Source: Dictyostelium discoideum
Taxonomy: Eukaryota
DNA: 64,000 nt
Assembly (NCBI GenBank): GCA_000004695.1
Contig: CM000152.2
Location: 5,376,001-5,440,000, forward strand
Direction of reading: 5' to 3'
The notes below the pieces were generated by a model. That model was not told the DNA's origin and ran no database searches. It was given only the letters and a program-made list of their open reading frames with translations. Below, in pieces: positions 47,413 through 49,035 of this stretch. Position 1 is the stretch's first letter. Each line of letters opens with the position of its first letter. Both the position numbers and the translations under genes were made by a program.

Positions 47413-49035
47413 ATGATGAAAGAAGTAAAAAAAAAATTATTAAATAAAGAATCAAATGTTTTAGGATTATATAATGCAAAACCAAATGAAATTGAGAACC
47501 CATTAGGAAAAGTTACAATTGGAGCAAGTATTTTTAGTTTTATTCAAATTTCAGTATTTTTAAGTTGGTTTTATTGGGTATATAAAAAGTATATGATTTG
47601 GTTTGAACATGAAGAATTAACAAGAACATCAACATTATTACCAAATACATCAATTGTTAAAGTTGGAATTCCACTTTTCATTCTCTCAATAATTTTAGAA
47701 TATTTAATTGGTTTATTATCAACTACAGATTATAATTCCAAAGAACAATATAGATTGTCAGATACAATTGCAAGTTTTTCAAATGGTATAATTCAACAAT
47801 TGATTGAAATGTGGACAACATTAATAGGTGACATGTTTGGATTAGTTATGATAACGGCAATTCCATATAAATTTATTTATGAAAATTATGGAGTAACTAG
47901 AATATTCGAAGGAAATTGGCAAGGTTTCTTATTCATGTTTTTGGCCAGAGATTTCTGCTATTACTGGTTCCACAGGGCAGCCCACAGATGTGCCTTCATG
48001 TGGGCCGTGCACGGCGTCCATCATCAACCCAATAGCTTTTCATACCATGTTAACCTAAGTCAAGGAGGAATCCAACGAATCACATCCACAGTTTTCTATG
48101 CCCCATTGGCGTTGTTCTGCCCACCGGAATTGTATACCATCATATTCCCAATGGAGAAGATTTATGGATTTTTCACACACACATGTTTAGTGGGGAGATC
48201 ACATTGGTTGGTCTCACTGTTTTTCGTAACACCATCATCACATCGTGTTCATCATGCTGGTGCACCTACTAAATATATTGATAAAAATTATGGAGAAATG
48301 TTATCAATTTGGGATAAATTATTTGGCACGCATCAAGAAGAAGAGGAGGCAATAGTGTTTGGACATTGTCAACCTATAGATTCCTATGAACCTATCTATT
48401 CACAATTTAACGGTTGGTTAAAAATTTGGAAAAAATCAAAATTGGTTAAATCACCTTGGAAAAAGTTTTTATGTTTTATAATGCCACCAGGTTGGGATCC
48501 AATAATTGGGAAAGAATTTGATCTATCATCAAGTAATTTAAAAAATTCAACACCTTATAATTCTGAAAAATATGATTCTCAATTACCAAATAATTTATTA
48601 AAATTTTATTTATTAATTTGGTTTATTCAAACACTTGCTTTATCAATTTATTTAATTAAAATGAATACTCAATTCATAAAACCAAATGGTGGAGGTGGTG
48701 GTGGTGGCTATTATTTTCTAGAAATTATTATTTTATTTTGTTATATTATTTATAGTTTATTTTGTTTTGGTTCAATTTCAGATTTAAATTCAAATTCAAT
48801 TTATTATGATTCAATTAGATTATTATTAACACCTTTAATTTTTTATTCGATTTTTAATCAAAAATTATCAAAATCAATTTTTGTTTATATTTCAATTATA
48901 TGTTTAATTTCATTTTTAATTTTATTTTCAAATAAAAATTATTTTAAATTTGAAAAATCAATTGAAAAACAAAAAAGAATTTGGATAAAAGAAATTGGTA
49001 GGGATTATACAAATAAATTAAATAAAATTAAATAA
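47413..49035 (+). CDS. Fatty acid hydroxylase superfamily membrane enzyme (sterol desaturase / alkylglycerol monooxygenase-like), ~540 aa
   Basis: Histidine boxes HRAAHR, HGVHHQ and HRVHHAG, with hydrophobic segments before and after. The likely start is ATGATGAAAGAAG at 47413; the ORF-track start at 47185 reads through poly-T/poly-A. The core at 47930-48300 is 45-50% GC, using gcc/gtg/ggc/ccc codons rare in Dictyostelium. Confidence 0.7.
   Translation: MMKEVKKKLLNKESNVLGLYNAKPNEIENPLGKVTIGASIFSFIQISVFLSWFYWVYKKYMIWFEHEELTRTSTLLPNTSIVKVGIPLFILSIILEYLIGLLSTTDYNSKEQYRLSDTIASFSNGIIQQLIEMWTTLIGDMFGLVMITAIPYKFIYENYGVTRIFEGNWQGFLFMFLARDFCYYWFHRAAHRCAFMWAVHGVHHQPNSFSYHVNLSQGGIQRITSTVFYAPLALFCPPELYTIIFPMEKIYGFFTHTCLVGRSHWLVSLFFVTPSSHRVHHAGAPTKYIDKNYGEMLSIWDKLFGTHQEEEEAIVFGHCQPIDSYEPIYSQFNGWLKIWKKSKLVKSPWKKFLCFIMPPGWDPIIGKEFDLSSSNLKNSTPYNSEKYDSQLPNNLLKFYLLIWFIQTLALSIYLIKMNTQFIKPNGGGGGGGYYFLEIIILFCYIIYSLFCFGSISDLNSNSIYYDSIRLLLTPLIFYSIFNQKLSKSIFVYISIICLISFLILFSNKNYFKFEKSIEKQKRIWIKEIGRDYTNKLNKIK

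Follow-up and report, generated by a model that had tools for sequence, protein, structure and literature searches.

Gene and protein at the locus

The window analysed here is a 64,000-nucleotide stretch of chromosome 3 of Dictyostelium discoideum AX4, in which we studied the single-exon gene DDB_G0282137 (Table 1). A first-pass annotation of the window had called it a fatty-acid-hydroxylase gene, and domain searches bear this out: the FA_hydroxylase match (PF04116) scores 99.7 bits (cut-off 31) and runs over profile positions 1–132 of 132, with all three histidine boxes (HX3-4H, HX2-3HH, and HX2-3HH) present. The domain and the three boxes are shared with AGMO/TMEM195 and with the fatty-acid hydroxylase superfamily at large, and the product is predicted to be a fatty-acid-hydroxylase or AGMO-like membrane protein. 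Aligned over 69% of its length, it shares 31% identity with an insect (Solenopsis) AGMO (E = 2e-33), although at 540 residues the Dictyostelium protein is longer than AGMO. The AGMO C-terminal family PF24858 gave no match in the AX4 protein at E <= 0.01 and only a weak one in the Tieghemostelium lacteum ortholog. Among the matches from protein searches, many of those from JGI are labelled AGMO, and the bacterial ones carry the label "sterol desaturase family". A literature search on DDB_G0282137 found no reports.

Table 1. Position of DDB_G0282137, its protein features, and the GC island in the window
Feature	Position	Strand	Basis
DDB_G0282137 CDS, intronless, 540 aa	47413..49035	+	ORF and translation; identical to D. 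discoideum AX4 XP_640367.1 / UniProt Q54SY8
Synonymous-site GC island, codons 165-271 (~320 bp; used in evolutionary tests)	47905..48225	+	GC3, permutation, and amino-acid-aware tests
Maximum-likelihood island core, codons 172-271	47926..48225	+	best two-breakpoint segment
FA_hydroxylase domain (PF04116), aa 172-306	47926..48330	+	Pfam, E = 2.3e-28
His box 1, HRAAH, codons 187-191	47971..47985	+	codon listing; within island
His box 2, HGVHH, codons 200-204	48010..48024	+	codon listing; within island
His box 3, HRVHH, codons 277-281	48241..48255	+	codon listing and GC3 profile; outside island, every codon T-ending

A GC island at synonymous sites

Base composition changes abruptly within the coding sequence. 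Between positions 47930 and 48300 the GC content is 42.9%, against 21.6% for the whole window, which places this segment at the 99.7th percentile of 371-bp windows; the sole higher peak in the window is a (GTT)n-type coding repeat at 18536–19180. The first-pass annotation had described a patch of 45–50% GC between flanks of 20–30%. The patch is there, but the figure was slightly generous, the maximum being ~45% in 200-bp windows and 53% being reached only in 90-nt windows. The remaining CDS of the gene has 23% GC, within the range given for the flanks, but falls below it, to 10–14%, close to the 3′ end. The stretch quoted as an example of the patch is found at 47968–48030, and CGG, listed among the codons used, does not occur in frame here, the in-frame codon being CCG.

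Most of the excess is silent. GC at codon positions 1, 2, and 3 is.41,.40, and.52 in codons 165–271, compared with.28,.31, and.10 in the remaining CDS, so that about two-thirds of the GC rise is synonymous. Amino-acid composition, considered as the only cause, explains just about one-third of the rise and was rejected on that ground. In codons 172–271, GC3 is 0.51 (n = 94), against 0.062 elsewhere in the gene (n = 419), with an LLR of 49 for the two-breakpoint division; none of 1000 permutations of DDB_G0282137 reached this value (maximum 14.6). The island uses G/C-ending codons at about eight times the rate of the rest of the gene, with the protein unaltered. When the expectation is taken from the amino-acid-specific codon usage of the window's other ORFs, codons 165–271 should hold 11.7 ± 3.2 G/C-ending codons, and 49 are observed. 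Other GC and GC3 peaks among all ORFs of the window were considered as comparable cases and set aside, being (GTT/AAC)n low-complexity sequence or poly-Asn repeats. The compositional break in DDB_G0282137 is far beyond chance and highly significant, as well as sharper-cored than first described, and the earlier view that it needs a special explanation holds.

The island core and the Pfam catalytic domain start at the same residue, aa 172. The 3′ edge of the island sits between two protein blocks that are equally conserved, and this edge therefore does not track protein conservation. The patch had been said to cover all three histidine boxes, but only the first two lie within the synonymous island: box 3 and the conserved block that follows it use A/T-ending codons (GC3 0.04–0.07), and such GC as they have comes from amino-acid content alone.

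Codons favoured in the island

The enriched codons end in C (35) and in G (14), and among them are GCG, CCG, GGG, CTG, AGG, and GTG, all of which the window's other ORFs use rarely. By a hand count from the codon listing, the enrichment is alike in twofold Y, twofold R, and fourfold codon classes. With C- and G-ending codons, rare codons, and the three codon classes counted all enriched, these data would point to a force acting on base composition and not on tRNA-matched codons.

Some resemblance to translational codon bias is nevertheless visible. Highly expressed Dictyostelium genes classically favour the codons TTC, CAC, TAC, and ATC, and many of the codons enriched in the island are such C-ending twofold ones. 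Translational codon bias in D. discoideum, reportedly treated by Sharp and Devine in 1989, is however a whole-gene effect, whereas GC3 is 0.06 in the remainder of DDB_G0282137. It also differs from the island in that the latter is enriched in G-ending and rare codons as well. Finally, silent-site GC in Dictyostelium is not known to rise above ~30% even in highly expressed genes, compared with 50–65% in the island.

Distribution of the island among orthologs

Orthologous loci were compared from two D. discoideum isolates (L005 and L006), two genomes assigned to "D. cf. discoideum" (L004 and L001), D. citrinum (L002), and T. lacteum (L003). Isolates CR116C and OT3A are among these assemblies, together with M4B and S6B, which may be cryptic species, and with the citrinum clade (PMC12745789). 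Within the D. discoideum complex, GC3 of codons 165–271 is high (AX4.49, L005.48, L006.49, L004.41, and L001.42). Outside the complex it is lower (D. citrinum.22, T. lacteum.10), while flank GC3 is.07–.13 in all seven loci compared. Three more distant orthologs, whose source organisms have GC contents of 28%, 30%, and 40%, lack any such spike over the His-box core. No orthologs from the group-4 species D. purpureum, D. firmibasis, D. intermedium, and D. dimigraformum were among the protein-search matches.

The island is seen in six independent assemblies, weakly in D. citrinum, and is absent in T. lacteum. It is thus real and lineage-specific, belonging to the D. discoideum complex and in weaker form to D. 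citrinum, and is not general to the gene family. The first-pass annotation had named a compositional profile common to the orthologs as something that would refute its own reading; the orthologs prove not to share the profile, and the reading is not refuted on this count.

The protein encoded by the patch in AX4 is identical to that of D. citrinum over residues 166–261, and that of T. lacteum is 81% identical. Ranked by protein identity, the relatives fall in one order (D. citrinum, then T. lacteum, then the others), whether the patch or either flank is compared. Third-position divergence in the patch is 1.5–2.4 times that of the flanks, and individual G/C sites within the island turn over and are not conserved. 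In one lineage, L001, private changes number 23 within the 321-bp patch, compared with a rate of 3.1% per site over the remaining CDS. The faster third-position divergence indicates that specific nucleotides are not being conserved.

Substitution process in the patch

Changes between A/T (W) and G/C (S) were analysed with a two-state maximum-likelihood model at third positions of codons with an unchanged amino acid. Branch lengths and rates were borrowed from the flanks (equilibrium GC3 0.10; ratio of S>W to W>S rates 8.7), and the estimates are those of a two-state approximation over 66–87 sites. Likelihood models were fitted because parsimony counts are unreliable at this composition. Polarised by parsimony, the W/S changes show an excess of W>S in the flanks as well, and we judged these counts to be biased by the extreme AT composition and the distant outgroup.

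The flank process with a free ancestral GC3 in the patch gives lnL = -238.7. A burst limited to the stem branch of the complex does little better (-236.3) and was rejected as a poor fit; one fixation-bias parameter acting across the whole complex reaches -222.6 with B = 1.83 (support interval ~1.0–2.9). Pure decay (B = 0) is rejected in the complex, at a cost of 14–21 units of lnL for one parameter. The estimate of B is stable, at 1.8–2.3 across two topologies and three patch boundaries, and in four control blocks from elsewhere in DDB_G0282137 it lies between -0.56 and +0.07. Under the fixation-bias model GC3 would have been ~0.45 at the discoideum–citrinum ancestor, and B for the branch leading to D. 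citrinum comes to -0.1.

The bias appears in both directions of change. A symmetric bias fits better than a change of rate alone, than a rise in W>S alone (lnL = -232.7), or than a fall in S>W alone. When the two rates are left free, W>S is 2.6 times and S>W about 0.36–0.38 times the flank rate, near the prediction for B of ~1.9. The rate of change between the two weak bases (A<->T) is equal in patch and flank, at 0.039 per W site, and there is therefore no general hypermutation of the patch. The excess is synonymous and fits a symmetric, G/C-favouring fixation bias with B of ~2 in the D. discoideum complex, at a normal A<->T rate.

Two further counts were made. Nonsynonymous changes in the patch lean towards G/C as the silent ones do, numbering 5 W>S to 1 S>W, which is not significantly different from the flank (P = 0.6). 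A compatibility (four-gamete) scan of five strains found four parsimony-informative sites in the patch, all compatible with the tree and too few for a recombination call; clusters of incompatible sites are present elsewhere in the DDB_G0282137 locus.

GC-biased fixation as the favoured explanation

The patch is best explained as an endogenous synonymous-site GC island that is neither foreign DNA nor an RNA element. Two processes leave a G/C-favouring fixation bias of this kind, restricted to ~320 bp and to a single lineage: GC-biased gene conversion (gBGC) at a narrow hot spot, and very weak selection for local GC. Since the patch contains no non-coding DNA, the two are inseparable at this locus.

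We tentatively take a narrow gBGC hot spot as the likeliest cause. Over ~320 bp, silent changes from A/T to G/C have become fixed at a higher frequency than elsewhere in the gene, and those from G/C to A/T at a lower one, with the protein unchanged all along. Behind this bias would lie a narrow and long-lived hot spot of recombination or repair at the patch, where mismatches in heteroduplex would be repaired towards G/C. Such a hot spot may have ceased in D. citrinum, or may never have acted there. The history favoured by the substitution model is one in which the shared ancestor already carried the island, which has since undergone neutral decay in D. citrinum.

Four observations incline us to gBGC: the bias appears to disregard codon preference, the 3′ edge of the island separates two protein blocks of equal conservation, orthologs of other AT-rich species lack the island, and sister clades differ in state, as the turnover of hot spots predicts. 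Known gBGC hot-spot tracts in mammals, birds, and yeast have the same local excess of silent G/C, with W>S raised and S>W lowered roughly symmetrically. The island would resemble them also in an apparent independence of codon preference and in its turnover between lineages, seen here as presence in the complex and decay in D. citrinum. Unlike known tracts, however, the island is very narrow (~320 bp) and lies wholly within a CDS, and its hot spot is one that we infer from the substitution pattern. D. discoideum has been reported to lack a genome-wide signal of gBGC (de Oliveira et al. 2021, PMC8321536), which counts against this reading. So do the compatibility scan, in which the patch gave no direct sign of recombination, and the lack of significance of the nonsynonymous lean towards G/C. 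Gene conversion had also been put forward in the first-pass annotation. The proposal survives only as GC-biased conversion of the resident sequence, and not as replacement of the core from another copy. With these likenesses and differences in view, the island is best filed as a silent-site GC island of the gBGC type, a class to which we assign it on its pattern of substitution. Islands of this kind are known elsewhere; to our knowledge none has been described in D. discoideum, as our literature searches found no such account.

The main rival to gBGC, in our judgement somewhat unlikely, is weak selection acquired in the D. discoideum lineage, acting for local G/C or against A/T-rich sequence in the mRNA or the DNA. 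Its possible targets include local mRNA stability, the rate of elongation through the membrane-embedded di-iron core, and the placement of chromatin or nucleosomes. Selection of this kind would give exactly such a fixation bias of B ~2. The start of the island at residue 172, where the catalytic domain begins, is in keeping with it, as is the report by de Oliveira et al. (2021, PMC8321536) of codon-usage selection in D. discoideum, tied to translation and to the stability of mRNA. Against it stand the orthologs of other AT-rich amoebae, which have no spike even where the patch protein is as similar as in T. lacteum. The equally conserved block of His box 3, moreover, has a GC3 near 0.05, and single G/C sites turn over instead of staying conserved.

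No specific RNA structure is supported either, and the suggestion of the first-pass annotation that strong selection on mRNA structure shaped the patch finds no backing. The predicted fold of the patch is no more stable than that of dinucleotide shuffles (z = +0.69). When six sequences are folded together with RNAalifold, the covariation term is unfavourable (+1.87) and many pairs are broken. Silent sites, as noted above, diverge faster in the patch than in the flanks.

A local change in the mutation spectrum, arising for example from error-prone repair or a lesion-prone site, would supply more A/T-to-G/C mutations with no fixation bias. The raised synonymous divergence of the patch and the many private changes of L001 are what it would lead one to expect. 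We consider it improbable, because raising W>S alone gives a much poorer fit than the symmetric bias does (lnL -232.7 vs. -222.6). Mutational input, moreover, cannot explain the lowering of S>W to ~0.36 times the flank rate, and the A<->T rate per site is equal in patch and flank.

An old import is a poorer candidate again. A GC-richer homologous core would have entered the ancestor of D. discoideum and D. citrinum by gene conversion or horizontal transfer (HGT) and would now be drifting back to the composition of the host. The modelled GC3 of that ancestor and the behaviour of D. citrinum, which is that of neutral decay, agree with such an event, and GC-richer orthologs do exist (L008 at 40% GC and L011 at 52% GC). 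A sharp compositional break within a gene is also what a mosaic or un-ameliorated HGT segment displays. But pure decay is rejected in the D. discoideum complex, so that the patch, unlike such segments, is not decaying at the neutral rate. Its protein is the same as that of the sister species, and the ranking of relatives is the same in patch and flanks, with no phylogenetic discordance. A search for a donor among 5.8 billion proteins, in one metagenome scan, and by plasmid BLAST found none, and the best GC-rich relatives in the protein and metagenome searches are just 72–79% identical in the patch. The recent horizontal origin of the core proposed in the first-pass annotation is, on the same evidence, not supported.

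There is very little to be said for an overlapping nucleic-acid element (a structured RNA, a noncoding RNA gene, or an antisense gene) that raises GC, even though an RNA gene is often what lies under a GC peak in an AT-rich genome, since silent sites evolve faster in the patch, folding and covariation are negative as described above, the best Rfam hit in the patch scores 18 bits where the threshold is 38.3 (E = 0.47; no credible match), no DUSE promoter motif lies near the patch, a tRNA scan of the window found none, and the antisense ORFs over the patch are all <=41 aa.

Implications

The enzyme itself is unaffected by any of this: the protein of DDB_G0282137 is ordinary and conserved. The locus also carries a warning, in that GC spikes in AT-rich genomes are unreliable as signs of horizontal transfer.

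The wider interest of the island lies in the use of D. discoideum as a baseline for separating selection from gBGC in work on codon usage, gBGC being there deemed negligible. A sharply bounded silent island with B of ~2 would show that this has local exceptions. It is plausible, though somewhat less likely than not, that the "gBGC-free" D. discoideum harbours narrow and long-lived hot spots of GC-biased conversion, or else an unrecognised selection favouring G/C. If so, such a force could hold a silent island of 300 bp at ~50% GC3 against an A/T-directed substitution pressure of ~9:1, and the locus would offer a natural paired test case, active in D. discoideum and decayed in D. citrinum. The meiosis of D. 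discoideum is poorly mapped, and the island could also mark a hot spot of recombination or repair there. The island is a curiosity of a single locus, yet it has a bearing on whether D. discoideum can serve as a gBGC-free model, and it is directly testable.

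Repeats and G/C-ending codons around the GC island

The GC island of DDB_G0282137, a stretch rich in G and C at silent sites within this fatty-acid-hydroxylase (AGMO-like) gene, is flanked almost exactly by the two copies of a 29-nt direct repeat, which are 86% identical and spaced 402 bp apart. The copies encode similar peptides, KFIYENYG and KYIDKNYG, which are conserved motifs. Because both motifs are found in distant orthologs too, the repeat, its match with the island edges apart, probably arises simply from similar peptides being written in A/T-ending codons. Dictyostelium citrinum has a small group of G/C-ending codons of its own (CCC, GGC, CTC, and ACC; codons 151-162), located immediately 5′ of where the island lies in D. 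discoideum and not shared with the other species.

Features in the D. discoideum AX4 window and at orthologous loci
Feature	Coordinates	Strand
29-nt direct repeat, first copy	47868-47896	
29-nt direct repeat, second copy	48270-48298	
D. citrinum G/C-ending codons	L002:3451-3486	
Highest GC peak	18536-19180	
Very large ORF containing the GC peak	17930-22081	-
ORF with two long poly-Asn tracts	24775-28755	-
Poly-Asn tracts	~27270-27400 and ~26690-26820	-
T run/A run	47215-47290	
Gene upstream of DDB_G0282137 (ORF)	45035-46570	-
Eight-site cluster	45728-45831	-
DDB_G0282137 ortholog, D. discoideum isolate	L006:3001-4613	

Other compositional extremes

GC content in the window peaks at 45.6% in a long, imperfect repeat of the (GTT/GTTG)n type, a low-complexity coding sequence with no relation to the GC island. 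In the ORF with two poly-Asn tracts, one tract is almost entirely AAC, with a local GC3 (G/C at third codon positions) of 0.83-0.87, whereas the other is wholly AAT (GC3 0.0), a difference in codon content suggesting that the two repeats expanded independently, each from its own seed codon. In the promoter region of DDB_G0282137, ∼130-190 bp upstream of the start codon, an unbroken T run passes directly into an unbroken A run (∼70 nt combined), an extreme homopolymer palindrome.

Orthologs and variation within the species complex

In the protein search, the interval between D. citrinum (81%) and Tieghemostelium lacteum (54%) contained no ortholog from D. purpureum, D. firmibasis, D. intermedium, or D. 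dimigraformum. Several group-4 lineages may have lost the gene, or it may be present but unannotated in them. In one D. discoideum isolate (GCA_054859385.1), the 1613-nt ortholog shifts frame around codon 412, just ahead of the poly-Gly/(GGT)n region, and the deposited model (495 aa) has a translation that is not collinear; the allele may be genuinely frameshifted, or the assembly may carry an indel in a simple repeat.

In the gene upstream of DDB_G0282137, AX4 and the 'D. cf. discoideum' genome L001, the most divergent of the five strains in this comparison, differ together from the other three at a cluster of eight sites interspersed with sites that follow the tree. Judged from this site pattern, the segment resembles a short tract of recombination or gene conversion inside the species complex.
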